From a virus: DNA of 64,000 nt. The position numbers and the translations under genes are program-made. Position 1 is the stretch's first letter. Every line of letters begins with the position of its first letter. Where the stretch lies: the IMG/VR virus record IMGVR_UViG_3300029267_002377, positions 32,001 through 96,000 of that record, one strand, 5' to 3'. Below, piece after piece: positions 22,644-49,713 of this stretch. Below the pieces are notes generated by a model. The model saw only the letters and a list, made by a program, of their open reading frames with translations, made no database searches and had not been told where the DNA came from.

Positions 22644-23603
22644 TTGTTACCTAATCAGATAGTTGGTGAGATTGAAAACGAACTCAACCTAGAGAAGTGG
22701 TTCCAAAAGGGTGGACCCGGCTCTGGTCACTGGGGTCATAGGGGTCGGAAGGGGAAACGAGGGGGTAGTGCTCCTTCTAGAGGGTTGGCTAAGTTGTCTG
22801 CTCCAGTTGGGAACGCTGGTGTTGAGGGTAATAGGGGAGTTGACAAGTTGCTCACTGACACCTTATTTCCTGGGGAGGAGGTAGTTACCAAACCAAAACC
22901 AGGGGATTGGGAATACGCTACTACCAATGAAAGAGCCAAACTCAAAGCCCAAGTGGCAAGAGACCTTTCTGAGGTATCTGGGGTTACAGAACAAGAAGCA
23001 GCTGACTTTGTGAGGCAGTGGGCGCACTCCTCTAACGACAACGATATGCGCTCTTTGGCTGTGCAGCAAGATGCGGCGAAGGAGTTTGGCCTTAAGACAT
23101 CGGAGTTTACTCAAGGTAAGATTGATAACATGAAAGAATACAGACAGAAACAGCTAAAAAGACTAGAGGAGGGATATACTATAGAGCAACTTGGAGTGCG
23201 ATGGGCAAGTGTAAATCCTTTGATGGAGAGTGATAAACAGCGAGCCCTCCTGAGAAGCATGTACAACGAGACACAAGCCGAACTGAAAGCGAGGGGAATT
23301 AAGGAGGTTCGGCTGTATAGGGGAGCTAGATTGCCGGATGATGGAAAATGGCCAGATAGAATCGGTGGTGCTATACCGGTTGAGACAAATGCAGTGGAGA
23401 GTTGGTCTGTTAGCGCACGTGTTGCGAGGAATTTTGCTACTCCTCAGAGTGGTGGTGACATAGGGGTGGTATTTGTAACGGTGGTTCCAGCCAATCGCAT
23501 TCTGTCAACTCCTGCAACTGGTTTTGGCTGTCTAAGAGAGGGAGAGGTTGTTGTCTTGGGGGGAATTGATGGAGATAATGCTAGAGTGGCGGGGATAAGA
23601 TGA
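22644..23603 (+). CDS. GGPGSG-motif protein with ADP-ribosyltransferase-like domain
   Basis: Shared motif, then LYRG...ESWS...EGEVVV (R-S-ExE). Confidence 0.7.
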   Translation: MLPNQIVGEIENELNLEKWFQKGGPGSGHWGHRGRKGKRGGSAPSRGLAKLSAPVGNAGVEGNRGVDKLLTDTLFPGEEVVTKPKPGDWEYATTNERAKLKAQVARDLSEVSGVTEQEAADFVRQWAHSSNDNDMRSLAVQQDAAKEFGLKTSEFTQGKIDNMKEYRQKQLKRLEEGYTIEQLGVRWASVNPLMESDKQRALLRSMYNETQAELKARGIKEVRLYRGARLPDDGKWPDRIGGAIPVETNAVESWSVSARVARNFATPQSGGDIGVVFVTVVPANRILSTPATGFGCLREGEVVVLGGIDGDNARVAGIR

Positions 23604-24434
23604 AGGTTATTAAGATAAGTGATACAGATGAGAATGCTGATTGGATCAAAGTTTTATCTGACGATGTAAAAGTCAGTGAAATGGCCAAGAAGCTCTTAAA
23701 AGATTATGTAAAGGAATGAAAACCTTTTTATGAATAAGGATTATGCAGCGCAGCTTCTAATTAGCGCATCTCAAGTGGAGGAAGATCCAGAACTCCAACT
23801 GGCGATGTTAATGGGAGCGCGGGAACTAACTCAAGACGAGCTTAAATGGATTCCTGTTGACTTGAGGAAATGGTTTTATCCAGAGTTGGGAGTTTAGAAT
23901 GAAGATTAGACGGATATGTCAGATGTGCTGGCACAATAAGTATGAATTTGACCCTAGCAAACCAGAAAGACCAGAAGACAAGTTTTGTCCTACTTGTAGA
24001 CGAAGAATGGGGTTAGGGCCTTCACAACCTGGGGTGGGAGCTTCGGATGGGCTAGACGTCGTGGGGAGACCGGTTCCAACGGGCCCCAAGAGGTCCATTT
24101 CTGAGATCGCGCATAGCAACCCGCCTGAGATTGATTGGAGCCAACTGCAGTGACAGTTCACTGTCCACTACACGGCAAACAAAGAGCAGAAGATCGCTCT
24201 GGTCAATGCGAAGCCTGTCAATATTCGAGAAACTTGAACGTCAATATAAAGAAGATTTTAATAAGGAGGGCAAAGAAGTGACAGGGGATCCAATCGCTGA
24301 GTGGTCTAGAGAATTTCCGTCGAAGTGGTTAGAGGCGGCTGGGTTTATACAGTTCTTAATAGTACAGGGGATTGAAATCGAGCCCCCAGATTACATGGAG
24401 CTCTTTAAGTATTTGGTTGAGAAAGGTTGAGCTG

Positions 24435-24719
24435 ATGTACGATAGTGCAGAGGGCACAAAAGCCCTAAAAGAGATGGGTCCTGCGCTAAAACACCACTAT
24501 GAGAACAACCGGCACCACCCAGAGCACTGGACAGCTGGGGTTAACAAGATGTCTCTATTTGATTTGATTGAGATGTTGGCTGATTGGGCGGTAGCAGTGC
24601 AGAGACATGCAGATGGAGATCTAGAAGAGAGCCTAAAGATCAATAAGGAACGGTTCGAGATCTCAGATCAGCTTTATGAGATCCTAAAGAACACAGCAGA
24701 GGATATGGGGTGGATTTAG
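24435..24719 (+). CDS. DUF5662-like protein, N-terminally short
   Basis: HHYENNRHHPEHW...EMLADW motif. Confidence 0.6.
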   Translation: MYDSAEGTKALKEMGPALKHHYENNRHHPEHWTAGVNKMSLFDLIEMLADWAVAVQRHADGDLEESLKINKERFEISDQLYEILKNTAEDMGWI

Positions 24720-25015
24720 ATCGGTTGCTGTACAAAATCCTTCCACCGGAGTGGTATCTAAAACTACACGGAATTAAACTGTATTCTGAACCTCCTACAG
24801 CGGCTACAGTAACGTATACGCTACACGGAGAAGAGAAAGCAGCTCAAGTTAAATTTGGAAGTGCATACGCCGTAGTGAAAATGTTCCCGTTGTGGTTGAA
24901 ACACGGGTTCCTTGAGAAGGGACCCGGAGATCGGTACTATATTCCTCCACATGACATTCTAAAGGTAGAGTGGTGGGACCCTATTTTGGAAGATTATTTC
25001 GCTGTTTATTGAGGG

Positions 25016-25276
25016 ATGAAGATGGACTGGATTCGAGTTGAAGATAAATTACCCAGAAAAACAGACAAAGTGCTAACATACACTAAGAACCGGGGTATAC
25101 TAATAGCTTCCTTTGAGGCAAACGGGAAGCGGTATGATGACAACTACATAGTATACGACATAACTCACTGGATGCCCCTACCAGACCCACCAGGGATTAC
25201 TGTAAAGATATGTGTTACAGGGGTATCGGAAGGTCTAACTAAGCGAATTGAAGAGATGGTGAGGGAGGGGTTATGA
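25016..25276 (+). CDS. DUF551-like protein
   Basis: WIRVEDKLP...ITHWMPLPDPP. Confidence 0.75.
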   Translation: MKMDWIRVEDKLPRKTDKVLTYTKNRGILIASFEANGKRYDDNYIVYDITHWMPLPDPPGITVKICVTGVSEGLTKRIEEMVREGL

Positions 25277-25403
25277 GGTACTTCTGGAACTTAGTCACAG
25301 GAGACTTAGTGGCAACTAGGGATAGACATACAATCGCAATCCTTAAAATGGAAGGCTACATTGAGGTCTCATATGAAAGGTACAAGGAGATTGCGAGGGC
25401 AAG

Positions 25404-25970
25404 GTGAGCAATAAAGCTTTCTTGATGAGCTATGTGCATAACAAACTAATGGAAGAGCCACAATGGGGGCCTACTCTGGCAGGTGCAGAGTATGAACCGA
25501 AGTGGATGGATTTTGTAGCACAAGGTTATGGGGCGAATAACCCCCTTCCGTCTATCTACGATACGTATGTGTACTCCTGGTTACATACTGGTTTATGCTT
25601 AGGGGCTATTCTGTATATAAAGATCTATGTAGGCCGAATACCAAAGGGCAACAAATACATAGAAGCAAACAACAAAGCACTAAACAACCTACCGTACTCA
25701 TTTAAAGCTACGTTTATTCCAATGAAAGGCAGAGGACATAATACAGACGGCGAGCTGGTGTGGACTGAGCCAATAGTGCTAGGACAAACACTGCACACAG
25801 GTAAGGTAGTAGAGGAAGAGCTACCTCCTGGCCAAGCTCCCCTGGAGGTAGGTGCTACAGAATCACACAGAACACTCATGCACCTACTAGAGGAGAAGAG
25901 ACTAGCTAGGTGGGCATATGGGGATAAGTACATAAAGCTGGTCTATGTAAGGGATGTGGAGTGGAAGTAG
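25404..25970 (+). CDS. hypothetical protein
   Basis: 188-aa ORF in the co-directional run. Confidence 0.55.
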   Translation: MSNKAFLMSYVHNKLMEEPQWGPTLAGAEYEPKWMDFVAQGYGANNPLPSIYDTYVYSWLHTGLCLGAILYIKIYVGRIPKGNKYIEANNKALNNLPYSFKATFIPMKGRGHNTDGELVWTEPIVLGQTLHTGKVVEEELPPGQAPLEVGATESHRTLMHLLEEKRLARWAYGDKYIKLVYVRDVEWK

Positions 25971-26681
25971 CGATTGCTTTGACAGCTCTCATAGTGAGTG
26001 CGTGGGTGGCGGTGTGTAGCTGGTTGGACAAAGCTGTGGAATCTACTGAAGTTCTACTTCGGCGGAAAGGTGAGGCATTAAGTAGATATCCTCCAAGCAC
26101 AATGTACGCAGCTAGAGAGGAGGCTAAGGTGAGGATGGAGAAGTATAGGGAGGAGATGAGGTTGAGCCGTGATAGTTATAAGAAGACAGAAAGGAGGCTT
26201 AAAAAGCTCAAAGGGTTGAGGAGATACTGCTGTGGGAGGTAACAGAAGGTCACCCACCACCCCTCTGGCCCCCGCCCCGGATAACTCTGGTGTTATGTAT
26301 GGGCGCTGAGGCGTAGAACAAACATATACATGTTCAGACTATGTATGTTATGTCAACAAATATGCAGTTTATGGGGCGTTTAGGCCAGGTAGGTGTAAAG
26401 ATTGTAAAGGATGACAGTGGGTAGGCAGGAGTTGGAAAAAATTAAAACCAAACGCGAAGGCGCTGCGGGCAATGTCACCTAACTTTTTTATAAAACCCAT
26501 CCCCAGAATAGGACCTTACATAAATTATGACTAACGAACTACACCCAACACACTCGGATGATTGGTGCTTAACCTGCAGTAAGCCGCCCACTTACTTAGT
26601 CCGTCACGAACCCTACCCACCTGTTCCTACAACTGCAAAGGACAATGTGGTTGTAGAAAAGGACTTCTTAAGCGAGGATAG

Positions 26682-26984
26682 ATGAACTACATTATAGGCC
26701 ACCTAGTTGGAGATGTTTTATTCCAAAACAAATGGTTAGCCACCATAAAGCGACAGCACATCTGGGGTATGTGTTTGCACTGTTTCATTGTAACGACGTT
26801 TGTCTTCCTGTTTACAAGTTGGAACCTACTCCAGCTTTCGTTGGCTTTTGCTTCTCACTTCATCATTGATTGGTTTCAGTTTAAGAAGCTTTGGCCCAAG
26901 TTTATTGACCAGTATGAGGGCGTTGGTCCCACGGACGATCAAATCTTCCACATCTTATCTCTATACTTAATAAACTTACTATGA
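26682..26984 (+). CDS. DUF3307-like membrane protein
   Basis: GHLVGD.LFQ...K, LH, SHFIID, DQIFH. Confidence 0.75.
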   Translation: MNYIIGHLVGDVLFQNKWLATIKRQHIWGMCLHCFIVTTFVFLFTSWNLLQLSLAFASHFIIDWFQFKKLWPKFIDQYEGVGPTDDQIFHILSLYLINLL

Positions 26985-27236
26985 AGACATACACTGTCAT
27001 CGGCTCAACTGACAATTACGAAATAAAAGCGTCTAACGAGAAGGAAGCTTGGAGACAAGCTATAGTTAAGAACTTAAAGCCACCTTTCATTAGAGAGAAG
27101 AAGTGATCTACTACAAGTGTAAGAAATGCAAAGGCTGGTTTACCAAGCCATACGGGTGGTTTACTAGAGTCGCTAAACCTAAAGTCTGGACGACCGTCAT
27201 TGAATTTACTTGCCCATCTTGTGTAAAGGAGAAAAA

Positions 27237-28169
27237 ATGAACGAAGTAAGATCTATCAAGTCCGCATACGCTAGCCACTTACTAGCCAAAAAGAACGTCG
27301 TGGCTGTAGGAGTTGGCTACAAGAGAGTCGGAGGAGAGCGGACCGACGACCTAGCTGTCATCGTCTCCGTAGTCCAGAAACAAACAAACCCCGTAGAACC
27401 TGTCCCCAAGTACCTCAATGGAATCAAAACAGACGTCCAGGAAGTTGGTGTCTTGAGAGCGATGCGAACGAGCAAGCACCGCCCCGCTCCTGGTGGAGTG
27501 TCTATTGGTCACGTCGACATCACGGCTGGAACACTTGGTTGCCTCACCTCCGAAGGGTATATTTTGAGCAACAACCACGTCTTGGCCAACTCGAACGCGG
27601 GAGAACCAGGAGACTACATCGTCCAGCCCGGTCCCCACGACGGCGGAACGGTTGATGACCTCATCGCTACGCTTTACCGGTTTGTTCCGGTTGAGTTCAG
27701 TTGTCCCATTTTGGATGGAATCATCGGTGCCGGGAACTTGATTGCCCGAGCCATGAAGTCTCGCTACCGCCTCCGAGGAGTCAACAACTCGGAGAACCTC
27801 GTAGACGCCGCCCTAGCCACTCCACTGTCATCTGACCTCGTCACCCCCGAGATCCTCGAAATCGGCGAACCCGCTGGAGTAGCCGAAGCCGAACTCGGCA
27901 TGAGTATTCAGAAGAGTGGCCGCACAACTGGCCTTACCCACGGAACTATCGAGCAAATTGACGTGACGGCCAACGTTTTGTACGGCTATCAAATGGCCAC
28001 TTTCACCGATCAAGTTATGGCTGGCTACATGTGCGAGGGCGGAGACAGCGGTTCGGCTGTTCTAACCGGCGACCGCGAAGTGGTTGGTTTGTTGTTTGCT
28101 GGATCTGAGTCGACTACCCTATTCAACCGGATCGCCAACGTCACGGACCTGTTAGGAGTCACCATTTGA
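27237..28169 (+). CDS. trypsin-like serine protease
   Basis: GTLGC, LSNNHV (His), VDAALA (Asp), GGDSGS (Ser); ATG 27237 after AAGGAG. Confidence 0.88.
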   Translation: MNEVRSIKSAYASHLLAKKNVVAVGVGYKRVGGERTDDLAVIVSVVQKQTNPVEPVPKYLNGIKTDVQEVGVLRAMRTSKHRPAPGGVSIGHVDITAGTLGCLTSEGYILSNNHVLANSNAGEPGDYIVQPGPHDGGTVDDLIATLYRFVPVEFSCPILDGIIGAGNLIARAMKSRYRLRGVNNSENLVDAALATPLSSDLVTPEILEIGEPAGVAEAELGMSIQKSGRTTGLTHGTIEQIDVTANVLYGYQMATFTDQVMAGYMCEGGDSGSAVLTGDREVVGLLFAGSESTTLFNRIANVTDLLGVTI

Positions 28170-28921
28170 CAGACATTGCTATCCAGATCATAGACAACTA
28201 CATAGAACTCGGTGGCCCCGGATCTGGGAATTGGGGACACGCAGGCAGAAAAGGAAAAAGAGGTGGGTCCCTCCCGCGCTCTAGAGCTATGTCTAGACGA
28301 ACAGGCAAGGACTGGAGAAAGCGTCAAGCAGCAGCTAAGAGGATTGCTGCCAAGGGTCACACTCCCCCAACGGATTCGGCTATGCATGAAGACCGTTTGC
28401 ACTCCTCTTTAACTGAAAAAGACAAAGGAGTGATAAGGCGTGCTGTAGCCAATCTCCCCCAGGAGCACCTAGACAAGGTCTATGGGATTGAGAAACGCCA
28501 TATCCCTGGAGCAGAGGGACGGTGCAGAGGGAACTACATCGAGCTAAATAGTGAGACTTATGGAGCTCATAATAGGCGGATTTGGCATAAGGCCACTGTG
28601 GTGCATGAGATTGGTCACGTGGTTCAAAATCATAACTCACAGTATGGAGACCGGCGTTACGTTGAAGATTTTGGAAAGTTCTATAGGGAGAAGAAAGGTC
28701 GAGTCGGAATACACCCCAGTGCACTACGGGCGGAAGCGACAAAGGCAGGAGGTCCGAGGAAGGGATTTCCTTCCCGATACTCTCAGAAAGATCACAAGGA
28801 GTTATTTGCCGAAAGCTACCAAATGTATACAAGCGCCCCGAAGACCTTACAGAAGCGAGCTCCGGAGATTTATGAGTACATGCGAGATGACGTGTTTGGT
28901 GGGGTGGAGTACATAAAATGA
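28166..28921 (+). CDS. GGPGSG-motif protein with zincin metallopeptidase domain
   Basis: HEIGH...SRYS...ELFAE (lethal-factor/MPTase-like). Confidence 0.78.
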   Translation: MTDIAIQIIDNYIELGGPGSGNWGHAGRKGKRGGSLPRSRAMSRRTGKDWRKRQAAAKRIAAKGHTPPTDSAMHEDRLHSSLTEKDKGVIRRAVANLPQEHLDKVYGIEKRHIPGAEGRCRGNYIELNSETYGAHNRRIWHKATVVHEIGHVVQNHNSQYGDRRYVEDFGKFYREKKGRVGIHPSALRAEATKAGGPRKGFPSRYSQKDHKELFAESYQMYTSAPKTLQKRAPEIYEYMRDDVFGGVEYIK

Positions 28922-29178
28922 ATATCCTTAGCGGTGTAACAGGTAAGCAGGTTGGGACTATGGATCGGCTGGGTCGAGTTACTACTTCAGATCGAGGACT
29001 CAAAGGTATTATGGCTGCAGTTAATAAAGATCGGTCTGTGGTTATACCCAGCCGCTCAGACGTCGTAGGTGAGGATAAAATAATAGATTTCGTGGAGATA
29101 GTATCAGATACAGATCCGGATTTTGTCAACGCGCTCATTATCTATCTCCTCCGAGAAGGCTATGAGGTTGTAGTATGA
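28918..29178 (+). CDS. small hypothetical protein coupled to the peptidase gene
   Basis: Overlapping start/stop with the upstream gene. Confidence 0.6.
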   Translation: MNILSGVTGKQVGTMDRLGRVTTSDRGLKGIMAAVNKDRSVVIPSRSDVVGEDKIIDFVEIVSDTDPDFVNALIIYLLREGYEVVV

Positions 29179-29290
29179 AAGAAGTTACTAAAGGCAAAAA
29201 CTGGCCCGTCCGGATTGAAGTCACCAAAGACGGATCCGGGAAAGTAATCAAACAGAAATCTATTCAAATTCCTAAACTAAGGCGTCTTAG

Positions 29291-29845
29291 GTGATTGAGA
29301 TTCTGGTAGCTTTAATCTTATACACTAGTATCCCACTCCGCATGCCAGATATGGTTGGCTTGGCCACTCCCTACGGTCCTCCAGCTTTTTGTCAGGGTGA
29401 TAGAATGCGCAGCGGCCAGGAGTTGGATCTAGCCGCTCCGACTATGGCAGTCAATGATTGTAGGAAGAACAGTACTGGGCAGTGTGTGTACGACTGGGAC
29501 ATCAGTTACTGGCCGCAGTGGGCGAATAAGAGAGCAATCGTATTCATTCCAGAGTGTGAGAAGTTACTTATTGTAGATATTAAAGACACAGGTCGTCTAC
29601 GGTCTGCTGGTCAGAGACGGTTGGGTATCCGAGATGGAGTGAAGCACTACTGGGGGCTGCCCCTGCCAGAGGAGGAGTACGAGTTGGCCACTAGAGTGCT
29701 GGACGAGCCCGTCTTGGAGCCGAATACAACTTGGTTGGAGGATGAAGTTTATTGGGTAGTAGCTGACTTTCCTGTTGAGTTTTATGAGAGAGAGGTTTTA
29801 TGTGGTTTGCTATGGCCCAAAGTGGCTATTTGGGTTGAGGAGTAA
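29291..29845 (+). CDS. secreted protein, RlpA-like double-psi beta-barrel
   Basis: N-terminal hydrophobic segment; GLATPY..F.G..MRSG...D....T.A...VDIKDTG pattern. Confidence 0.5.
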   Translation: MIEILVALILYTSIPLRMPDMVGLATPYGPPAFCQGDRMRSGQELDLAAPTMAVNDCRKNSTGQCVYDWDISYWPQWANKRAIVFIPECEKLLIVDIKDTGRLRSAGQRRLGIRDGVKHYWGLPLPEEEYELATRVLDEPVLEPNTTWLEDEVYWVVADFPVEFYEREVLCGLLWPKVAIWVEE

Positions 29846-29848
29846 GAT

Positions 29849-30013
29849 ATGGATAAAGTAAAAATATACAATAAGTTGGGCCAACTCGTCGGGTGGTACA
29901 TCAACGGGGTGGTGCAAGTCTACTCCCCCGACCTCCAGAAGGCGAAAAAGGGATGTCCAGAAGGCGCAGACCTTGTAGAATTTCTGAAGAGTCGGGGGTT
30001 TCGTTTTGAGTAG
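29849..30013 (+). CDS. 54-aa hypothetical protein, copy 1 (not in ORF track)
   Basis: GAGGAG RBS; MDKVKIYNKLGQLVGW...LVEFLKSRGFRFE; paralog at 31586. Confidence 0.7.
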   Translation: MDKVKIYNKLGQLVGWYINGVVQVYSPDLQKAKKGCPEGADLVEFLKSRGFRFE

Positions 30014-31358
30014 AGACCTCTTTGCCGAAGTAGGCGCCATACTAACTGAGATGGGCGGCCCCGGTTCTGGCCACCATGGTCACAAAGGCCGCAAAGGTAA
30101 GCGCGGTGGATCGGCCCCTTCTAAAGCTGGTGGGATTTCTAGCCCTCAACCGGTAGGTGGTGCTTGGTCTTCTTGGCACGCATTCGAGGTGGATGTTATT
30201 CAGGGGAATATAGACCCTGATTTCTCGATACAGGCTGAGGTGGATAACACTTTGTACGAGGTTAAGCTTGAAAGCTGGTGGGAAGGATGCATGGAGTCTC
30301 GAGGGTTGGGTAAAACTTCTTGGGGATCTATAGATAGGAGGTTTGAGGAGTTAATGGCAGCGGAAGCTGGTTGGGATAGGGTTGATATATCGGGTTTTAT
30401 AGATAATACCCACATAGCTCCATATGGTGCCACATACATCGGAAGAAAAGTCCTGCGGGTAAAAAGCGACTTTATCATTTCTCAAGTCGAATCCCAACTC
30501 GTTCTCAGCCCCGAAGGTGGATGGGTAGAGAAAGGCGGACCAGGAAGTGGCCATTGGGGTCACGCTGGTCGAAAAGGAAAGAGGGGAGGGAGTTTGCCGG
30601 GGGCAGTCGGCGTTCTTGGCGCTGCGGTTGTAAGCCAGTTGGAGAAGGATGGTTACGATCCGGGTATACTGGTGTCTATAGGTCGAGATGCCCGCGACCG
30701 GGGTTTTACCTCCCTTCTGGGGGATCTGCATGATGAGGTACCCGAGAATGAGTACATGAAGTATGCAGATGCCTACGCAGAAGCAAGGTTATTCACCAGC
30801 GGGGGATTTAGTGGTCAAAGCGACCCAGGATTTAGGCATGTGTCTCTCAAACGTTTCGAGAGGGACTTAGCAAATCCAGAGCGTCGGTGGATACCAAAGC
30901 AATTGGCAGCAGCAGCTATAATCAAAAGTATGGTAGAGCAAGATTTAAGAAGTACTCCTCGTTTATACCGCGGTTCAGATTGGGAGGGCTCTCTATCTGT
31001 GGGAGACAAGGTAGATTTTGGGACCTTGGGGCGTGAGTTTTCGAGCCTTAGTCCCGCTGGTGGGGCTTTTGGGGCTCGTAAATATACGTTTATTTTGGAT
31101 AACCCACAGAGAGGAGCAAACCTTAAGAATTTTTCTAATCACCCCGAGGAGAAACCTTGGTTGATAAAAGGAAACTATAAGGTATCTTCTATCAAAGGTA
31201 AAAATATTACTATAGTACCGGGTGGGGTATCTAAGAGTGATTTTATCATTTCTCAAATCGAATCCCAACTCGTTCTCAGTCCCGAAGGTGGGTGGGTGGA
31301 AGACGTGCTTGTTTCCGAACAACGGGTGGCAACATCTCTATCGAGCTTATTTGAGTGA
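30006..31358 (+). CDS. protein with two GGPGSG motifs and an ART-like domain
   Basis: Motifs at about 30054 and 30534; LYRG...FSS...HPEEK. Confidence 0.65.
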   Translation: MSRDLFAEVGAILTEMGGPGSGHHGHKGRKGKRGGSAPSKAGGISSPQPVGGAWSSWHAFEVDVIQGNIDPDFSIQAEVDNTLYEVKLESWWEGCMESRGLGKTSWGSIDRRFEELMAAEAGWDRVDISGFIDNTHIAPYGATYIGRKVLRVKSDFIISQVESQLVLSPEGGWVEKGGPGSGHWGHAGRKGKRGGSLPGAVGVLGAAVVSQLEKDGYDPGILVSIGRDARDRGFTSLLGDLHDEVPENEYMKYADAYAEARLFTSGGFSGQSDPGFRHVSLKRFERDLANPERRWIPKQLAAAAIIKSMVEQDLRSTPRLYRGSDWEGSLSVGDKVDFGTLGREFSSLSPAGGAFGARKYTFILDNPQRGANLKNFSNHPEEKPWLIKGNYKVSSIKGKNITIVPGGVSKSDFIISQIESQLVLSPEGGWVEDVLVSEQRVATSLSSLFE

Positions 31359-31573
31359 GGGAGACTTGTATTATGCTTACTAGTGAACTAATCGATCATC
31401 TAGAAGAGATTCGAAAGCAGCATGGAGACTTACCTATCTATATATTTACTGATGGGACGGGCCCATCAACTTGCATGGATCTCGAGCGAGTAGATGTAGG
31501 TGAGGCTTGGTTCGCGAACAGTCCCGAGACGGTACGAAGTGCAGTGATTCTAAGTTTGTATGGAGTGGATTAG
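31355..31573 (+). CDS. hypothetical protein, paralog of 47060-47284
   Basis: Shared N-terminus M.TSELI..LEEIR..HGDL. Confidence 0.6.
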   Translation: MRETCIMLTSELIDHLEEIRKQHGDLPIYIFTDGTGPSTCMDLERVDVGEAWFANSPETVRSAVILSLYGVD

Positions 31574-31585
31574 AAAGGTAGCAGT

Positions 31586-31741
31586 ATGGGCAAAGTAAAA
31601 ATCTATAACAAGCTGGGCCAGCTCACTGGCTGGCTTGTAGTACAAGTCTACTCCCCCGACCTCAAGAAGGCGAAAAAGGGATGTCCAGAAGGCGCAGACC
31701 TTGTAGAATTTCTGAAGAGTCGGGGGTTTCGTTTTGACTAG
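31586..31741 (+). CDS. 51-aa hypothetical protein, copy 2 (not in ORF track)
   Basis: Near-identical to 29849-30013. Confidence 0.7.
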   Translation: MGKVKIYNKLGQLTGWLVVQVYSPDLKKAKKGCPEGADLVEFLKSRGFRFD

Positions 31742-33503: not shown

Positions 33504-34602
33504 TATTATCAATTTAATAGACGAGTCCCTTGGTGAGTACAAGGAGATGGGTGGGCCCGGTTCTGGACACTGGGGCCACAAAGGGCGGAAAGGGAGGCGC
33601 GGTGGTTCCGCTCCCAGCAAGGCTGGAACTGTGGCCAAATCCCCATATTTGAATTCTGTGCTCGAGGGGAGGGTCGACACGTATGTCCCACCCAGCAGCC
33701 GAACGGATCCTATTGCCAATGAGATTATCAAAGAGCAGGGGTTCGATGGCAAACCGGATGTGGTGACTGCTTCTGAGCTAAATGAGTTTGTGAATTCTGG
33801 GGAGAGGGAGCTTTACCGTGGAGTATCTAGGGGGGAGTATGCCGAGGAGTTGATGTATGGAGATTCGTTTGAGACGGGGACCGGTATGCATGGCGCAGGG
33901 TTATATACAGTTTACGGCGAGAATGCAGATAGTACTGCAATGTACTTTGGAGCTAAGCAAGGAGAAAACGCAACTATAATTCGGATGTCTCTGAAAAAAG
34001 ATGCTAACGTTATAAGTGAGTCTGCGCTTAAGGAGGAGATGGAAGGATGGCTAGCAAGCCGGGAGAGCGTAAAAGTAGATCCTGATACTCTGAGGACCCA
34101 AGCCTTTGCTGCTGCGAATCGTGGCGATAATAAGACTGCGAATAATCTTATGCAGGCCTCTTACATAGCAGAACAGCATGGAGATGTCGTAGGACACATA
34201 GCGACAGGAGATCGGGGGCGGTTTGCTGCTGCTAGCGGTTATGATGCAATAGATGTATCGGAGCAGGGCTACATGGTGGTTTTAAATAGATCTGCACTGC
34301 GAATAGCAGAGAACCCAATGAGTGCAACAGCACCTAAACGAGGTTCCATAAAGTCTCCTCGAGTACTGCCGTCGCAACAGGTGGATGTGAGCAAAATTGT
34401 CCCAAGTGCTGTTTTGCCGAAGCATCGAGTTAGCTGGCTGAGAAATCAAATAGAGAGTAAGCGTCAGCAGGCAATCGCAGCGGCAGAGAAGGTAGCAACA
34501 TCCAAATCGCCGGGGACAGTTAAGAAATGGCATACGCGGAGGAAATACTTAGAGCAGGATATGCACCATCTTATTGCTGTTCTGGAGGGACGCGTTGAGT
34601 AG
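33475..34602 (+). CDS. GGPGSG-motif protein with ART-like domain
   Basis: LYRG...GTGMHGAGLY...GYDAI...MVVLN; paralogous to 38402. Confidence 0.6.
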   Translation: MTASTQCSADIINLIDESLGEYKEMGGPGSGHWGHKGRKGRRGGSAPSKAGTVAKSPYLNSVLEGRVDTYVPPSSRTDPIANEIIKEQGFDGKPDVVTASELNEFVNSGERELYRGVSRGEYAEELMYGDSFETGTGMHGAGLYTVYGENADSTAMYFGAKQGENATIIRMSLKKDANVISESALKEEMEGWLASRESVKVDPDTLRTQAFAAANRGDNKTANNLMQASYIAEQHGDVVGHIATGDRGRFAAASGYDAIDVSEQGYMVVLNRSALRIAENPMSATAPKRGSIKSPRVLPSQQVDVSKIVPSAVLPKHRVSWLRNQIESKRQQAIAAAEKVATSKSPGTVKKWHTRRKYLEQDMHHLIAVLEGRVE

Positions 34603-34653
34603 GGGGAATTTTTAAAAATTTCTAGCACCTGATGCTTATTAAGGTGTAATTAT

Positions 34654-35547
34654 ATGGCAAAAGATATGGGCGTGGAAGGAATAGATTACATAGTTTGTAG
34701 GGTATGCGGTGCCAAGGCAAGGCGTTTAGATAACCGCCATCTACCGTTTAAGCATGGGATATCTTCGGTAGAGTATCTGGAGAGGTTTCCTGAAGCACCG
34801 CTAATGTGCAGTGAGACGAGGAGGAAATATTCCAAGACCACTAAGGAGGCGTGGAGTCGGGGAGACCACAGTAGTGGTGAAACAACTCGGAAAAAATCTA
34901 GAGCAGCAACTGCAGCGTGGAAGGATCCTGATAGACATCATGAGATGTCGGGTAAGATAAAGGAATCTTGGGATAGGGGCGATCACGAGGGAGCATGGAC
35001 GGAGGAACTCCGAGTACGGCAATCTAGGAAGATAAGGCAGTGGTGTGAGAATAACCCGGATGAGGTACAGGCTAATATGCGGAGAGCCCGAGAGGCTAAA
35101 GTTCTACTTGGAAACCGGGCGGTGTATACCGACGAAGTCCGTGCAAGGATGTCTGAGAGCGTAAAAGAGGCTTGGCGGAGAGGCGACTACGATGGAGTTT
35201 TTGACTCCCCTACTTCTATAGAGATTGATGTATCTCGGGCTCTGGATGAGAAGGGGATTAGGCACATATCTCAGTATAGGCCGAAGGGGTATTATAGGAT
35301 CTACGATGAGTTCGTGCCTCCCAGGACACTAATTGAGGTTCAAGGGTCCTACTGGCATACTCTCCCTGACATGCAGGAGCGAGATATAGAAAAGGCTAGG
35401 TGGGCGCATCAGAATGGATACTTTGTGGTTGCAATCTGGGATTTTCAACTGGAGGAGTACGGAGCAGATTTTTTAGTTGAGAATTGGATTCTGCCGCTAA
35501 GTTCTACCAAGGGTGTGGGGGCTCCTCATATGGAGAGGTTATTCTAA
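34654..35547 (+). CDS. free-standing putative homing endonuclease (C2H2 module, NUMOD3-like repeats, Vsr/DUF559 nuclease)
   Basis: Repeated K.AW/K.SW helices; TSIE...YD...LIEVQGSYWH..D..K...GY.VV.IW. Confidence 0.75.
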   Translation: MAKDMGVEGIDYIVCRVCGAKARRLDNRHLPFKHGISSVEYLERFPEAPLMCSETRRKYSKTTKEAWSRGDHSSGETTRKKSRAATAAWKDPDRHHEMSGKIKESWDRGDHEGAWTEELRVRQSRKIRQWCENNPDEVQANMRRAREAKVLLGNRAVYTDEVRARMSESVKEAWRRGDYDGVFDSPTSIEIDVSRALDEKGIRHISQYRPKGYYRIYDEFVPPRTLIEVQGSYWHTLPDMQERDIEKARWAHQNGYFVVAIWDFQLEEYGADFLVENWILPLSSTKGVGAPHMERLF

Positions 35548-37013
35548 TGGCAGCAGAACCGAAGAGAAGATCAGTAGCATATCTGGATGTAAACACAAGA
35601 CCATTTTTACAGCCGTCTCGTGTGCCTTCTATGTTCTCAAGCACGCAGTGGCGGTATCTGGCATCAGAGCCTGTAAACCTTTCGTACCAGACACATCTTG
35701 TGAGATCCTTGAAACTTGAGTATAAGTTTACTCCAAAGAAGGGGGTGGACCCAAAGAGCGATGAAGTATTAGAGATAACTGAGTATTATGAGGAACTTTT
35801 CGAGCATGTTAGGTTCGATCTCCTAAAGGTTATGTGGGAGAAAGATAGCTACGATCTACCTTTTGGGGGTTCTTTAGAGATTATGTGGTGGCCAGATGGT
35901 GCGTTTGGTGGGAAGTTCCCTGCTGGTTACCCTGCTGGAATAGTGCACGTGGATGCTGGTACGATGTATATCAATCAAGGCAACCCAAACTATCCATACG
36001 TCCAGATGGATCCGAATGACAATCAGCGGCCAATCGCGTTTAAACGTCGAGAAATTGCTCGACTTATGTACCTTCCGCAGACGAGCATAAAGCTCTTTGG
36101 GTATCAAAAAAGCCCTGTAGAACAAAATTATCAAGTGATAGAAGCGTTGGCAAGGCTTTATACTTATGATTTGAAAAGTTTATCGGATACCCCCATTGCA
36201 GGAATCTTGGATTTAATGGATTTCTCGGAAGCGGACGTGACAGAGTGGAAAAAAGGTTTCGAAGAAATGATGATGGGTGTGAATCCCATTAAGATTCCTT
36301 TGCTGTATGAACACGAGACTCCTGCCAAATTTGTTCCTTTTGGTCAACCTGAGCTGAATGTTAGCGAAAAATGGAAGCATTACGCGGAGAAATGTGGAAC
36401 ACCATATGGTTTGACCATAGGTAGCCTTGGCCTGGCGGAGCACGATAGGACGCTTGCTGGAGCTCGTGTACAGAGGTTAACTACCCAACGCACTGGCGTG
36501 GGTGGGTTCGCCTACGACGAGAAGCGGGCGATCAACCGGCAGTTCTTCCCGCCAGATTGCCCAATCATGTTCGATTGGGACGTTCCTGAGATTGAGGACG
36601 TAGTCAAACGGCGCCAGGCTGAGGGTTTGCGAATTGCTTACCTGGGTCAGATGGTAGGAGCTGGGGCACTGGCAGCAGAGGATATGCTAGAGCAGGCAGT
36701 TGAAGACGGAATATTTTCAATCCCTGTTAAACCGGGAGCAATACAAGAAGGAATCCAGGGTCTGCCCAAACCTCCTGCCCAAAAGGAAGTTCCACCTAAG
36801 GCTCAAAAACCAAAAGGAGAATATCCTGAGTATCCTCCCGCAGTGAAAGCTGCCCATATAGTCGAGGAAACCCTCCTGTTGAAGCAAGACGTAGGAGATG
36901 ACCTTGAACAAACCAAAGCTTTTAAAATGATGCAAGATGTCCTAGCGGATCAGTTGTATGGAAAGGCAGTAAAGGGAAGCATCGAGAACATTTTCAATCA
37001 GCTAAAGGAGTAG
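35547..37013 (+). CDS. portal protein
   Basis: Position after terL, size, HVDAGTM..YVQ...F...E..R...GYQKSPVE pattern; ATG 35547. Confidence 0.8.
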   Translation: MAAEPKRRSVAYLDVNTRPFLQPSRVPSMFSSTQWRYLASEPVNLSYQTHLVRSLKLEYKFTPKKGVDPKSDEVLEITEYYEELFEHVRFDLLKVMWEKDSYDLPFGGSLEIMWWPDGAFGGKFPAGYPAGIVHVDAGTMYINQGNPNYPYVQMDPNDNQRPIAFKRREIARLMYLPQTSIKLFGYQKSPVEQNYQVIEALARLYTYDLKSLSDTPIAGILDLMDFSEADVTEWKKGFEEMMMGVNPIKIPLLYEHETPAKFVPFGQPELNVSEKWKHYAEKCGTPYGLTIGSLGLAEHDRTLAGARVQRLTTQRTGVGGFAYDEKRAINRQFFPPDCPIMFDWDVPEIEDVVKRRQAEGLRIAYLGQMVGAGALAAEDMLEQAVEDGIFSIPVKPGAIQEGIQGLPKPPAQKEVPPKAQKPKGEYPEYPPAVKAAHIVEETLLLKQDVGDDLEQTKAFKMMQDVLADQLYGKAVKGSIENIFNQLKE

Positions 37014-37016
37014 TTT

Positions 37017-38414
37017 TTGGCCAATAAGCGCTGGACCCAAGACGAGACAAATCTACTAATCTCTATGGGAGACAACATCGAAGCATCTGGGCAGTCCTGG
37101 AGAGAAGTGGGGGAGATGTTTGGTGTCTCTGAGAGCTCTGCTCGGCAGAAGTATATTCGAGAGAGAGAAAAAAGAGGCAGGAAAGATCGGCAAACTGTCA
37201 AAAGAGATGAACGGGTTAACACTATGGTTGTTGAGGCACAGTTTGCTGGAATCAAAACTCTCGATGAGATGCTTGAAGTTTGCCAGGTAGATTTAAATGT
37301 CTGGAAGGTTGACCGGTACCTTGTAAACAAGTGGCCCGTTGGTGCTAAGGCAGCCAAAAAGGATCTTACTTGGGATGAGGGGCGTCTAACTGGTTCTGTA
37401 TACGAGGACGGACTTGTTATTGCTCCCCTGTTCCAAGTCAAAGTTTGGTTATCACGTATTGAGCCGGAACCGATCTTCCCAGTCCTCCAGCCGGTTGAGT
37501 GCAAGATTTTCAAACTTCCACAGGCATATAAGGCACGAAAAGGGGAACTGCGCAGAACGCTTATATTTTCAGATCCCCATTTTGGATTTATTCGTGATAT
37601 TACAACAGGTGAGCTTACTCCTCTCCATAACCGTGCAGTTCTAGATGTTATCCTCCAAGTAGCTCAAATAGCTGAAGTGGACCGTGTGGATGTTTTGGGG
37701 GATATGTTAGATTTGGCTGAGTGGTCTACAAAATATACAAAATCTCCAGAGTTCTGCGAAACGACTCAGCCTTCTGTACTGGAAGCTCACTGGTGGTTGT
37801 CTCAATTTCGGCAATGTTGTGAGGAGATGACTGTTTACGAAGGGAACCACGGTAAAAGGTTGCAAGATGCCATTGTCACTCACTTGAGAGCCGCTTATGA
37901 CCTCCGGCCCGCCGATGAGATGGAGATGCCACCAGCTATGAGTGTGCCCCGTCTACTAGGGTTGGACAGTTTAGAGATAGAATGGGTTGGAGATTACCCG
38001 AGTGGGGAGGTATGGTTAAATGAGTTTTTACGCTTGACCCACGGCGAGATAGCGAGAATTCCCGGAAATACTGCCAAAGCAGTTATTGAGAGTGGAGACA
38101 CGAATGAGATTTTCGGCCACACTCACAAGGTGGAGTGGGGAAGCAGAACGATACACCGCGCTAAGGAGATAAAGCAGGTTGTTGGGTTCTCACCTGGGTG
38201 TGCCTGCTGGATAGATGGCCGGGTACCTGGGTTTAGTTCAGGTCCACAGTGGCAGAATGGGTGCGCTATAGTTGATTATGAAGTCGGGGGAGAATTATTC
38301 TGGGTTTCCCCTGTTCTGATTTGTGAGGATAGGGCGATTTTCAATAAAGAACTAATTGTGGCAAGGGATCAGGTAAGTAATTTGGGGAGTAGTTATCCTG
38401 ATTGGAAATGGTAA
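37017..38414 (+). CDS. calcineurin-like metallophosphoesterase with N-terminal HTH
   Basis: SDPH, GDMLD, GNH, HG, GHTH motifs. Confidence 0.85.
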   Translation: MANKRWTQDETNLLISMGDNIEASGQSWREVGEMFGVSESSARQKYIREREKRGRKDRQTVKRDERVNTMVVEAQFAGIKTLDEMLEVCQVDLNVWKVDRYLVNKWPVGAKAAKKDLTWDEGRLTGSVYEDGLVIAPLFQVKVWLSRIEPEPIFPVLQPVECKIFKLPQAYKARKGELRRTLIFSDPHFGFIRDITTGELTPLHNRAVLDVILQVAQIAEVDRVDVLGDMLDLAEWSTKYTKSPEFCETTQPSVLEAHWWLSQFRQCCEEMTVYEGNHGKRLQDAIVTHLRAAYDLRPADEMEMPPAMSVPRLLGLDSLEIEWVGDYPSGEVWLNEFLRLTHGEIARIPGNTAKAVIESGDTNEIFGHTHKVEWGSRTIHRAKEIKQVVGFSPGCACWIDGRVPGFSSGPQWQNGCAIVDYEVGGELFWVSPVLICEDRAIFNKELIVARDQVSNLGSSYPDWKW

Positions 38415-39262
38415 TGGCTGACTTGTCTGCAGGTATTGTCAATCTAATAGAATCTTCTCTTGGTGATTTTCGGGCGATGGGAGGCCCTGGCTCAGGTCAT
38501 TGGGGACATCGAGGACGAAAGGGCAAAAGAGGTGGGTCGGCTCCCTCTAGAGCTGGAAGACTTACGCCGTTGGCGGATCTGGTTTCTCCTACCGGTTTTA
38601 CGGATATTGGTGGAATGATAGGTCGTTTAGGAGAGGAAGGCACAAAGGAGGAGATCACAGGAAGACTGTTCGCCGAGATTGGTTATAATTCACTGCCGAG
38701 TGTGGTAACGGAGAAGGAGCTAGACAGCGTTATCGGTTCTGGTGGACTGGAGATGTTTAGGGCGGAGGGAGGAGCCCGAGCGGCAGAGTACGCCGAACAG
38801 TTTAGGTCAGGTAGATTGCATACTGGGAGTGGATTTTATGCCAGCGGGGTTCATGCTGCACATGGTAGGGATGCCGAAAGCCATGCTAAACATTTTGCGA
38901 AAAGCGAGGGCGGAGTTGTCACTAGGATGGCTCTTAGTAAAGGGGCTAAAGTTGTTACAGAGGCAGAAGTTCATAGATTACACGACCAGTTTAGCAAGTT
39001 GAGAGATACCGAACTTAATAAGTTATCTGTTCGTCTTGCTAAGGACCCAACAAACAAGGATTTGGTAAGGGATATAACAGAATATTCTCGGATTTCAAAT
39101 GATGTAGCGGAGTTTGCGCGACACGATATGGCTCGGCTCCCGGCGTTGTTGGGTTATGATGCTATTCAAGGTTTAGATGGGCAAGGGTTGCCTGAGACGA
39201 TTATATTGAACAGGGGCAAGGTATATGTATCTGATACAAGTACAACGGTGCCGCGAGAGTAG
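38402..39262 (+). CDS. GGPGSG-motif protein with ART-like domain
   Basis: MFRA...GSGFYASG...LGYDAI...IILNR; paralogous to 33475. Confidence 0.6.
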   Translation: MEMVMADLSAGIVNLIESSLGDFRAMGGPGSGHWGHRGRKGKRGGSAPSRAGRLTPLADLVSPTGFTDIGGMIGRLGEEGTKEEITGRLFAEIGYNSLPSVVTEKELDSVIGSGGLEMFRAEGGARAAEYAEQFRSGRLHTGSGFYASGVHAAHGRDAESHAKHFAKSEGGVVTRMALSKGAKVVTEAEVHRLHDQFSKLRDTELNKLSVRLAKDPTNKDLVRDITEYSRISNDVAEFARHDMARLPALLGYDAIQGLDGQGLPETIILNRGKVYVSDTSTTVPRE

Positions 39263-39274
39263 GAGACTTTTTGA

Positions 39275-39877
39275 GTGGCTGACGAAGAACTGTGGGACCG
39301 AATAGATGAGATCCTAGACGACTCAGAAGAGTTTTGGTCAATAGACGTTTCTGACGAACTCATTGCAGCGTTAACTCTGGCTTACTTAGACGGGCTAGAA
39401 GGGGCAGCAGAGTACATCGGAGAGCTGGCTGGGGTAGCAATTGAGTTGGCTTTTGACCTGGTAGATCCTGTTGCTCTGGAATTTATTCAAGACAGAGCAG
39501 CAGAGATGGTTCGAAACGTCAACAGAGGAACCAAACACTACCTCCGCACTATGATCTACAACGGTCTCCAAGAAGGGATCCCCGAACAAGACCTGATAGA
39601 CGGAATTTTTAAAAATTTATTCGAGCAGAGCGAGTTTAGTGAGCAAAGGATCCGCTCGATCACTCGGTTTGAAATTGCTCGTGCCCAGTCTTCTGCTTGG
39701 GAAAAGCAGATGGACGAAGTCGGCCTTGAAACAAAGCGATGGGTGACCATTGGAGCGGACGCATGTGAGGTCTGTAAGGCTAATGAGGCGATGGGTCCCC
39801 AGCCGGTTAACTCGAAGACCTTTGATAACGTTTTTGGAGAAAAGTGTGGTGGGCCGCCAGCTCACCCGAACGTCTGA
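39275..39877 (+). CDS. MuF/SPP1 gp7-like head morphogenesis protein (in-frame TGA inside the HPNxCRC motif)
   Basis: RI..ITRFE.ARA, KRWVT..DAC.VC..N, PPAHPN; continues in frame as *RCHL into 39887-40666. Confidence 0.85.
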   Translation: MADEELWDRIDEILDDSEEFWSIDVSDELIAALTLAYLDGLEGAAEYIGELAGVAIELAFDLVDPVALEFIQDRAAEMVRNVNRGTKHYLRTMIYNGLQEGIPEQDLIDGIFKNLFEQSEFSEQRIRSITRFEIARAQSSAWEKQMDEVGLETKRWVTIGADACEVCKANEAMGPQPVNSKTFDNVFGEKCGGPPAHPNV

Positions 39878-39886
39878 AGGTGCCAC

Positions 39887-40666
39887 TTGGCAGCGACTCC
39901 GTCGGAGATCGCAGGGTTAGGAAAAGAGATTGAATTCTACGTAGGCAAGTCAGAGGTTGAGAAAGGCGGGCCTGGAAGTGGTCATTGGGGTCACAAAGGG
40001 CGCAAGGGCAGGAGAGGGGGAAGTGCTCCCAGTAAGGCGCCCGCTGTTGTGGGAAAGGTTAGTACTGTTGATTGGACTGATGACAACTATAGGAGTAAGT
40101 TTGAGGAGGCTACTGGTGGGCACCGTGTGGGTTCGCGTGTTACAAAGAACCAAGCTACTGAGATAGCATACAGTCTGCAAGGGATGCCTCAACCCGATAC
40201 TGAGGTTACTTTTATCACAACAAAAACCCAAGAAGAATTCGATCGCGTATATGGAGGTTCGGCTAGGGGTTGCGCTGGATTTTACAGGGTGTACACAGAT
40301 GAAATTGTTTTTGGGCCGCAAACATCTGCTAACCTAGACACACCTCAGGGGTTTGCCAGTTATGGCACAGTTTGGCATGAGTGGGGACATGCGCTGGATT
40401 ACACACTGAGTGAAACGAAGGGAGTGGCTAAGTCATCCAAGGTGATTCGGGCAAAAGATAATCCGTACGACCGAGCCTGGCTTTTTGATCGGTTTCCTAC
40501 GAACTATGCAAAGAAAACAGAGCGGGAATTCTTTGCAGAGAGTATAGAATGTGTGAAAAGGTACTCGAATAAAAGGGAAGTGGGTTTCTATAAGCATTAT
40601 TTTCCGGAATCACATGAGATGGTGGGAGCTGTCCTTGGTGATAGAATGCCGGAGGAGTGGAAGTGA
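39887..40666 (+). CDS. GGPGSG motif + zincin metallopeptidase; probable C-terminal extension of MuF
   Basis: HEWGH...TNYA...EFFAES; same frame as MuF; no clear RBS before the TTG. Confidence 0.75.
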   Translation: MAATPSEIAGLGKEIEFYVGKSEVEKGGPGSGHWGHKGRKGRRGGSAPSKAPAVVGKVSTVDWTDDNYRSKFEEATGGHRVGSRVTKNQATEIAYSLQGMPQPDTEVTFITTKTQEEFDRVYGGSARGCAGFYRVYTDEIVFGPQTSANLDTPQGFASYGTVWHEWGHALDYTLSETKGVAKSSKVIRAKDNPYDRAWLFDRFPTNYAKKTEREFFAESIECVKRYSNKREVGFYKHYFPESHEMVGAVLGDRMPEEWK

Positions 40667-44856: not shown

Positions 44857-44897
44857 AGGTTAAGATTCTAATCGTCTTTAGGACGTGTCGCAATATC

Positions 44898-44928
44898 AAG
44901 GGGAGATTCAGTTAATGAATCTCCCCTT
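44898..44928. terminator. hairpin between convergent genes
   Basis: 13-bp stem AAGGGGAGATTCA/TGAATCTCCCCTT. Confidence 0.6.
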
Positions 44929-49087: not shown

Positions 49088-49226
49088 AGCTAGGATTGGC
49101 TTTTATTCCTCCGGCCAGTACGCCTCACTTTTTCAACTTTTTGGCGCTTCCTAAGCCGATCTCCCCTTCCAGATTCGTTCTGTGTGCTTCTTCGAACTCG
49201 TTGTTTTGACATTGTAACCTACTAAA

Positions 49227-49682: not shown

Positions 49683-49713
49683 GAGGTCGAACCTTAAAAT
49701 TTTCAGTTGCCTC

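Follow-up and report, generated by a model that had tools for sequence, protein, structure and literature searches.

Why does a short glycine-rich peptide recur in front of unrelated enzyme domains in the head-gene region of a phage, and what could it do there? Enzymes that travel in phage heads are known to be injected into the host so as to disarm it. We studied a window of 64,000 nucleotides (bases 32001-96000) of the 108,853-bp IMG/VR virus record IMGVR_UViG_3300029267_002377, the genome of an uncultured phage with direct terminal repeats that is rated 100% complete. Six open reading frames (ORFs) in the window contain seven copies of a peptide of about 20 residues, here called the tag. 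The tag is real, lies far beyond chance and has a wide reach, and the role proposed for it below is plausible: the proteins that bear it are probably cargo that enters the capsid and is trimmed inside it.

The pattern GGPGSG(H/N)(W/H)GHxGRKG(K/R)RGGS is present exactly seven times in the window, always on the plus strand, according to both a six-frame regular expression and a degenerate DNA pattern. The first glycines are found at positions 22710, 28211, 30054, 30534, 33550, 38480 and 39965. The DNA pattern gives seven matches, whereas 100 dinucleotide-preserving shuffles average 0.00 matches and none of them has any. The tagged ORFs are P1 (22644-23603), P2 (28166-28921), P3 (30006-31358, with two copies), P4 (33475-34602), P5 (38402-39262) and P6 (39887-40666), all on the plus strand. 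When the whole record is searched with a profile, eight matches are obtained. The eighth is at G000:C1:6163-6297, outside the window, in an ORF of 162 amino acids that sits between a head-tail adaptor gene and a Neck1/tail-completion gene; the module of this protein has no family match in the Pfam, NCBIfam and PHROG scans.

The protein alignment of the window headers has 17 invariant columns. The corresponding 78-nt DNA alignment has 30, none of them at a third codon position, and serine is coded by both TCN and AGY. The seven DNA copies are 60-79% identical. The lack of any invariant third-codon position indicates that the copies are old and have been kept by selection on the peptide. Before each tag there is a leader of about 15-26 residues, acidic and amphipathic, which is modelled as a helix. 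The leaders are alike across all eight headers, and the one of P1 is kept in orthologs from other samples (P0163, P0165, P0166, P0169, P0170 and P0174), which argues that the leaders are translated and under selection. An internal start at the methionine just before the tag, considered for P3, P4 and P5, was rejected, as it comes without usable Shine-Dalgarno (SD) spacing and the leaders are conserved in paralogs and orthologs. A first-pass annotation of this DNA, made from the letters alone, had described seven copies in six ORFs, conserved as protein with differing codons, each behind a short acidic or amphipathic leader and ahead of a variable module, scattered among the packaging genes; this description holds.

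The same annotation described a family within this phage and suggested a profile search across phage genomes. A profile made from the seven headers was searched against 1.84 billion cluster representatives; 2,750 proteins reach E<=1e-3, 567 reach E<=1e-10 and 60 reach E<=1e-30. The tag is therefore no local family feature but the local form of a very widespread inter-module header of phage polyvalent proteins. The best 150 matches are mostly long (425-3,154 amino acids) with up to 10 tag copies, and the top tagged relatives, with 3-10 tags in 600-3,154 amino acids, have the multi-domain build of polyvalent proteins. In multi-tag proteins the median spacing between tags is 227 residues. The consensus from 471 copies is (K/R/L)-GG-P-GSG-(N/H)-(F/H/W)-GH-x-GR-P-G-x-(V/R)-GGS-x-P, with the glycines, serines, histidine and arginine close to 100%. 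Among the top 28 proteins, 17 have a Pfam match and 11 have none. The families found in tagged relatives include ART-PolyVal, ADPrib_exo_Tox, MPTase-PolyVal, 2H/LigT phosphoesterases, ParB_N, Zeta_toxin and PolyA_pol, together with inteins and Peptidase_S78_2 / XkdF-type prohead protease; NUDIX, portal and MuF modules are also found between tags.

Of 69 loci fetched from IMG/VR, 48 have at least one strict tag; there are 130 tags in their 100 tagged ORFs, and all are co-oriented. Portal-NUDIX or Portal-2H fusions stand before the tag in these loci, and ART, DRAT, Ntox50, Gln_amidase or GNAT modules after it. In 14 of the 48 loci three to six ORFs are tagged separately, so a disassembled layout is not unique to the window. 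What the window contains is a disassembled version of a multi-tag polyvalent protein, mostly with one module per gene: instead of the many domains (2-15) of polyvalent proteins, each ORF has one module and P3 has two.

A pattern scan of GTDB, with one genome per prokaryotic species, gave at least 129 loci. Among the matches listed, 60 of 129 translate to a true tag, the others being chance matches mostly in GC-rich genomes. The true-tag hosts among these matches are Clostridia, Chloroflexota, Acidobacteriota, Omnitrophota, Elusimicrobiota, Proteobacteria and archaeal contigs from metagenome-assembled genomes (MAGs), where binning errors are possible. Hosts with a name include Clostridiales bacterium CCNA10 (locus L102, complete genome) and Candidatus Desulfosporosinus nitrosoreducens (locus L094, a draft assembly from an enrichment). 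A tblastn search with a multi-tag protein and P3 against 50,697 GenBank phage records gave no tag matches, but the low-complexity filter probably masks the tag, which makes this search uninformative on cultured phages. No Pfam-A, NCBIfam or PHROG model covers the tag in the scans made, and literature searches found no paper describing the motif. The tag is apparently a previously undescribed conserved element within a known kind of system.

How the tag is placed in these proteins is informative about its role. Among 143 proteins, some have as few as 7-14 residues ahead of the first tag (25th percentile 24), and at least 119 residues follow the last tag in 140 of the 143. The tag is always ahead of a module and never behind one. 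The residue just before GG has an identity of 0.85 within a protein versus 0.22 between proteins. No such within-protein excess is seen at -5 and further upstream, the conservation being gone 4-5 residues upstream of the tag. The residues before the tag fall into the classes xxK, xxR, RxL and xE(K/R). In AlphaFold2 models the tag has no predicted fold, with a predicted local distance difference test (pLDDT) score <50 even with a 147-row alignment, while the leader helix scores about 70-75. The absence of predicted structure fits a linear motif. Since standalone genes keep the header under purifying selection, it must be more than a joint between modules.

The residues before the tag were then compared with the head type in twelve multi-tag loci. 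In the two T4-like loci, L009 (Portal_T4, Gp23, Peptidase_S77) and L040 (Portal_T4), all 12 of 12 tags are preceded by hydrophobic-hydrophobic-Glu. The proteases of the T4 family cut after Glu and, according to the text consulted, remove N-terminal targeting propeptides of 10-20 residues from internal proteins (PMC5694885, PMC3012670). Judged by sequence, the residues ahead of all 12 tags in these two phages fit such a cut. Seven of the twelve loci have a DUF2213 protein, and the two of these proteins that were scanned match PHROGs named head maturation protease. In loci with a DUF2213-type protein the residues before the tag are RxD (7/7), xxD (9/9) or (R/K/S)xL (13/13). In locus L013 the DUF2213 protein is itself tagged and matches only PHROGs of unknown function. 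The Pfam family Phage_Mu_F is found in 7 of the twelve loci, and a regular expression for the MuF end motif, a crude proxy, in only 4 of the 48 tagged loci. MuF as the reader of the tag was considered and set aside, as in L013 the MuF domain itself lies behind a tag, which makes it an unlikely receptor. Inteins were also noticed in head-region genes of the T4-like tagged loci, in ORF 43-3276 of L009 (Intein_splicing and LAGLIDADG_3) and inside the T4-like portal of L040 (Intein_splicing and HNH_3).

The explanation we favour is that leader and tag form a cleavable header on capsid cargo, and in our judgement the chance that this is correct is about even. The six ORFs, together with the seventh outside the window, would be a disassembled polyvalent protein, whose enzyme modules are made with the head proteins and loaded into the procapsid. 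The header would consist of three parts. The first is a lineage-specific leader, here the acidic amphipathic helix, which would bring the module into the procapsid as the capsid targeting sequence does in T4. The second is formed by two or three phage-specific residues that may act as a site for the phage's own head-maturation protease. Last comes the universal tag of 20 residues, GGxGSGxxGHxGRxGxxGGS, with a spacer rich in Gly, Ser and Ala behind it. The protease would then cut just before GG, or within one residue of it, and so remove the leader or, in fused forms, separate neighbouring modules. The flexible tag would be left as the mature N-terminus of the cargo, where it could hold the cargo on the DNA or the portal, or lead it out through the tail. 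We thus infer that the tagged proteins are packaged, cleaved and injected. The always-upstream position, the sharp edge of conservation, the match with head type, the lack of a fold and the retention in standalone genes together favour a cleavable header. The genomic context adds that the tagged genes are found among terminase, putative portal, MuF and neck genes, that one tagged zincin carries on the MuF frame beyond a single TGA, and that MuF-fused versions of the P1 and P4 modules exist elsewhere.

Several observations weigh against a cleavable header. The residue before GG is mixed in the window (K, L, M, K, M, M and K; the eighth copy has R), and a glutamate is found at -2 in only 5 of the 7 window copies, or 6 of 8 with the eighth. 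Position 6 of the tag (N/H) is equally uniform within proteins, at 0.85, and covaries with -1 (R goes with H in 33 of 34 proteins), so part of the signal could come from the common descent of tag subfamilies. Nor does a protease site account for the 20 residues C-terminal to it, which hardly vary between prophages of Clostridia and contigs of archaeal MAGs. No maturation protease of this phage was found; the ORF of 713 amino acids at 41080 matched no protease family. The trypsin-like protease encoded beside P2, at 27210-28169, has no match by phmmer in the tag-bearing loci fetched (0/69) and was dropped as a general partner of the tag, though it stays a candidate in this phage. Finally, no virion proteome, N-terminal sequence or expression datum was found for tag-bearing phages, and cleavage and packaging are therefore deduced indirectly.

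There is also a bolder version, which we hold to be possible but on balance doubtful: the tag could be a universal portable header of the tailed viruses of bacteria and archaea. After the head protease has trimmed the leader, the exposed Gly-rich N-terminus would be read by a common part of the head, either the packaged DNA or the portal channel, and the cargo would be held there and later led out with the genome.

Alternatively, no processing might take place, and the tag would be an uncleaved address or retention signal that binds the packaged DNA or a conserved head part such as the portal or the capsid interior. A disordered linear motif is well suited as a binding peptide, and the standalone genes keep the tag. 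Bacterial and archaeal tailed viruses would all need to have the partner in common, which is true of DNA. We take the G-R-P-G core of the tag to resemble the GRP core of AT-hooks, and the version in this phage is strongly basic (GRKGKRGGS). This is the view of the first-pass annotation, which proposed that the basic tag is a DNA-binding or head-loading signal. The basic form is specific to this clade; the consensus GRPG(E/K/Q)(V/R)GGS has little net charge, and charge-driven DNA binding can therefore not be its general role. The placement of the tag ahead of variable enzyme modules among virion genes agrees with the annotation, while the residues before the tag, which resemble maturation-protease sites, suggest a cleavable header and not only an address. 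An uncleaved address would not explain these phage-specific residues, nor why modules fused to portal or MuF, which are already anchored, are still tagged. We regard it as unlikely, though it is the alternative to take most seriously.

The position of the tag, which in every case lies on the N-terminal side of a module and has a flexible spacer behind it, could also mean that it acts later, either on exit or after entry. A Gly-rich, predicted disordered N-terminus might start the threading of unfolded cargo through portal and tail channel, whose geometry is common to all tailed viruses, or it might be read in the infected cell. Threading, however, needs no invariant Ser, His and Arg, and with hosts ranging from Clostridia to archaeal MAG contigs a host reader of the tag is improbable. 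We give this idea a low probability.

The modules behind the tag are extremely diverse, which invites the idea that the header is mainly a cassette-exchange junction, i.e. homology for swapping modules with no role in the protein, as with pre-toxin motifs. Recent repeats are indeed present by the headers of P3 (68 nt, 90% identical) and flanking the P3 cassette (105 nt, 96%). The tag DNA copies themselves, however, are at 60-79% identity too different for homologous recombination, and with no third-codon position invariant the conservation is at the peptide level, so that a mere junction is quite improbable. Least credible of all is a self-cleaving motif, in which the tag would cut its own chain, e.g. 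through an N-to-O acyl shift at a Gly-Ser bond, with the invariant His and Arg assisting: a partner-free mechanism would account for the universal invariance, and the tag does have an invariant Ser, His, Arg and Ser and two Gly-Ser bonds, but even a deep alignment gives no predicted fold, the autoproteolytic sites known are located within folded domains, and we know of no precedent for a 20-residue self-cleaving peptide of this kind.

The first-pass annotation had assigned two ADP-ribosyltransferase (ART)-like modules of the R-S-E type, two paralogous ART-like modules of another type and two zincin peptidases. P1 (319 amino acids; leader 22644-22709, tag 22710-22769) carries a DRAT-like R-S-ExE ART module. 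It has 32 homologs, and in a 25-row alignment R226, S253-W254, E299 and E301 are invariant and S255 is conserved in at least 90%, so the P1 family has the ordered Arg, Ser-x-Ser and Glu-x-Glu catalytic motifs of R-S-E ARTs. The Pfam family DRAT (PF07357) is matched by 14 of the 25 family members (E<=0.01, best 2.3e-5), and P1 itself has no match to it. The homolog P0188 is fused to a MuF domain.

P3 (450 amino acids) has two headers, with tags at 30054-30113 and 30534-30593, each followed by a module. For module A no match was found. Module B is an ADPrib_exo_Tox-like ART, with an ESM Atlas feature score of 0.93-0.94 and a TM-score by query of 0.56-0.62 to PF03496/PF01129 clusters; many of the Atlas clusters that resemble it are minor-capsid or MuF fusions. 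A homolog search by sequence with module B found none. The two R-S-E-type assignments, P1 and P3 module B, are thus supported, by conserved motifs in the former and by Atlas likeness in the latter. The leader of the second P3 header is repeated at the C-terminal end of the protein without a tag (30462-30529 and 31233-31300, 68 nt, 90% identical), which may be the trace of a recent recombination at the header. A small ORF, MDKVKIYNKLGQL..., is also present twice on the plus strand, at 29849-30013 (54 amino acids, upstream of P3) and at 31586-31741 (51 amino acids, upstream of the large terminase gene). The last 105 nt of the two copies are 96% identical and the first 49 nt 78%, and neither has a family match. 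With this ORF on both sides, P3 and the ORF at 31355-31573 form a cassette between direct repeats.

P4 (375 amino acids; tag 33550-33609) has a leader, a module of 200 residues with a putative ART-like fold and a C-terminal helical hairpin. Its start codon is uncertain, with no good SD before TTG 33475. The AlphaFold2 model of P4 has a mean pLDDT of 70.7, with a confident core at residues 80-285 and residues 1-66 below 50. According to VIA-align the top structure is 9k3a_B, from the pre-ejectosome of cyanophage A4 (Z 9.1). Over residues 108-290 the ART toxins 9qe9_B (Z 7.8), 6d0h_A (7.2), 3q9o_A (7.1) and 7k7b_A (7.1) are matched, a range where chance arrangements score too. The best Foldseek match, at E 4.6e-3, is not an ART. 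A comparison with the P1 family by hhalign is not significant (probability 1.6%), and there is no conserved catalytic Glu in 12 sequences. PDB sequence searches with P1 and P4 gave only chance-level matches. P4 has 11 homologs, one being the query's own sequence; in P0152 a P4-like module comes after a MuF-type HPNC motif.

P5 (286 amino acids from TTG 38402; tag 38480-38539) has a leader and a paralog of the P4 module. A likely start is ATG 38414, which overlaps the upstream stop. In BLASTP the two proteins are 33% identical over 293 columns (E 7e-43). The claimed paralogy of P4 and P5 is therefore sound, whereas the ART fold has only moderate backing (Z 7-8, hhalign 1.6%), and from the models we assign an ART-like fold to these modules tentatively.

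Of the two zincins of the annotation, P2 is confirmed as an HExxH protein of the ATLF type, and P6 is probably another. P2 (251 amino acids; leader, tag 28211-28270) has the motifs HEIGH and ELFAES and matches Pfam PF07737 ATLF at E 1.1e-6 (29.0 bits, cut-off 27.4). P6 (259 amino acids; leader, tag 39965-40024) has the motifs HEWGH ... EFFAES. It has no Pfam match and is assigned by its ESM Atlas feature score of 0.96, 179-185 of 256 features being common with ATLF-carrying clusters. P6 also matches P2 in BLASTP at E 3e-13, with the header included in the alignment. The DRAT-like ART, the ADPrib_exo_Tox-like module and the ATLF zincins agree with the effector repertoire of polyvalent proteins, and the PolyVal-named Pfam families have no matches among the window proteins. 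Small plus-strand ORFs lie over the stop codons of P2 (28918-29178, 86 amino acids), P3 (31355-31573, 72 amino acids) and P6 (40657-40908, 83 amino acids). Only the one at 31355-31573 matches a PHROG, of unknown function, and the two behind the zincins are unlike each other; the three could be immunity or chaperone partners of the enzymes.

P6 is also the only tagged protein that follows a MuF gene in frame. A MuF-like head morphogenesis gene of 200 amino acids (39275-39877, plus strand) matches PHROG 2468 (7.9e-13) and PHROG 2662 (4.1e-13), and weakly TIGR01641 (E 0.012); it has no Pfam match, PF04233 included. P5, the MuF-like gene and P6 have one reading frame in common, interrupted between the latter two by an in-frame TGA at 39875-39877 (plus strand; HPNV-TGA-RCHL), and the P6 tag starts 29 residues past this TGA. 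The MuF end reads HPNV-TGA-RC here versus H-x-x-C-R-C in the relatives P0188, L051 and P0079. In P0079 the same order of MuF and tag is fused, with 16 residues from the MuF end motif to the tag. The same TGA is present in contigs of 4 runs, which may be source samples and not independent. The sequence AAGGTG 5 nt ahead of TTG 39887 makes independent initiation of P6 possible. Recent fission, programmed read-through and two separate products are all possible for MuF-TGA-P6. An alternative genetic code was rejected, as table 11 leaves ORFs of at least 700 amino acids open and P6 itself terminates at a TGA. None of the six remaining tagged proteins has a MuF domain. Together with the MuF-fused counterparts of P1 and P4 in other genomes, this agrees with the earlier view that the effectors are mostly detached from MuF.

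The tagged genes are encoded with virion packaging genes, as those of polyvalent proteins are. According to PHROGs the small terminase gene (TerS) is at 21822 and the large one (TerL) at 31734. The MuF-like gene described above and a putative portal at 35484, from a weak PHROG match (E 0.0098), complete this set, and a metallophosphoesterase is found at 37017. The trypsin-like protease gene (27210-28169, plus strand; Pfam Trypsin_2 1e-7, PHROG 20754 3.2e-61) lies within the head-gene region; its stop codon and the start codon of the tagged P2 zincin overlap in a TTGA. Contigs identical over 38402-40666 are present in metagenome runs from sediment and seawater, and no RNA run is listed among those that have them.

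Behind P6 is the ORF of 713 amino acids (41080-43221, plus strand), located before the capsid gene. At residues ~284-341 there is a conserved segment, EVEKARGEGQGVGG...QGDGG, and next to it a zinc ribbon, CxxC...CxxC. The 'KSEVEK' ahead of this segment is identical to the end of the P6 leader. The segment is also present in loci L049, L019 and L024, and in L049 a true tag comes directly after it. The N-terminus of this ORF, a candidate for the head protease, has no homologs in the IMG/VR search and only chance-level matches in a PDB sequence search. The putative major capsid gene is at 43259-44620, from a weak capsid match. Its 3' part contains a group I intron, complete by Rfam RF00028 (model positions 1-253, 63.8 bits, E 7.3e-14), at 44392-44720 on the plus strand, and the second exon was not located; the last ~75 residues of the capsid ORF are probably intron-derived. 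After the capsid gene there is a minus-strand block at 44912-46737, with a zinc-finger/HNH-like ORF of 305 amino acids and a second ORF of 303. The GC skew is negative at 44000-50000, which breaks an otherwise plus-strand genome.

How does the tag compare with other short peptides that accompany cargo? The cargo-loading peptides of encapsulins are short, contain glycine and address diverse enzymes to the inside of an HK97-fold shell. They are mostly C-terminal, bind a defined pocket of the shell and are not cleaved. The tag resembles them as a short Gly-containing peptide that would address diverse enzymes, but it heads its modules. Polymorphic toxins have pre-toxin motifs with names such as VENN and DPxGL. 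Like the tag, these form a conserved short junction at a variable toxin module and may be a processing site, as far as the consulted text describes them (PMC3482391). In that text they belong to secreted bacterial toxins (secretion systems of types V and VI, Rhs), whereas the tag goes with virus heads and can occur as many as 10 times within a single protein.

The closest likeness is to the phage-type polyvalent proteins, which have the same ART, zincin peptidase, 2H, ParB and NUDIX modules in the searchable text of Iyer et al. 2017 (PMC5512222). There, they are encoded alongside portal, MuF and terminase genes and are predicted to be delivered together with the DNA (PMC5512222). The tagged genes here are likewise among portal, MuF and terminase genes, and the best relatives by tag carry Pfam PolyVal families. 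Unlike the proteins of that text, those in the window are mostly separate genes with one or two modules each. Zincin-mediated processing was proposed there (PMC5512222), while the residues before the tag point to a head maturation protease instead. The searchable text of that paper mentions no inter-module header or linker, although its supplements could hold alignments showing one.

In MuF polymorphic toxins, as presented in the text consulted, a MuF head protein has a variable C-terminal toxin (PMC5576092, PMC3482391). In this phage P6 continues the MuF frame past a TGA, and other genomes have MuF fusions of P1-like and P4-like modules, but six of the seven tagged proteins here are not MuF-fused, and the parts of the phage examined have no sign of temperate life. 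No conserved linker is mentioned in the searchable text of PMC5576092, whose supplements could again hold alignments. The T4 capsid targeting sequence, finally, is a short N-terminal leader on unrelated proteins, which in the internal proteins and Alt is removed by the prohead protease after loading, according to the accessible parts of PMC3012670 and PMC5694885. As a pattern of residues only, the acidic leaders of 15-26 residues are similar, and in the T4-like tagged phages the leader ends in hydrophobic-hydrophobic-Glu. However, no universal Gly-rich tag follows the T4 sequence, and the tag also occurs within long fused proteins and in phages whose proteases belong to other families.

There is at present no way to tell the travelling head proteins of uncultured phages apart from others. 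A near-invariant header across thousands of phage proteins would be a marker of head cargo that needs nothing but sequence, and the tag may deserve its own family definition. In this phage the header marks three ART-type modules (with good or moderate support), one weaker ART-like paralog, two zincins and two modules of unknown kind. If it is a cleavable header, the head protease of each phage should have a cleavage specificity that agrees with the residues ahead of the tag, and the header offers a handle for reporter loading, protease mapping and cargo engineering. If the header is indeed universal, one short peptide would predict the injected proteome of uncultured phages and let chosen proteins enter capsids.

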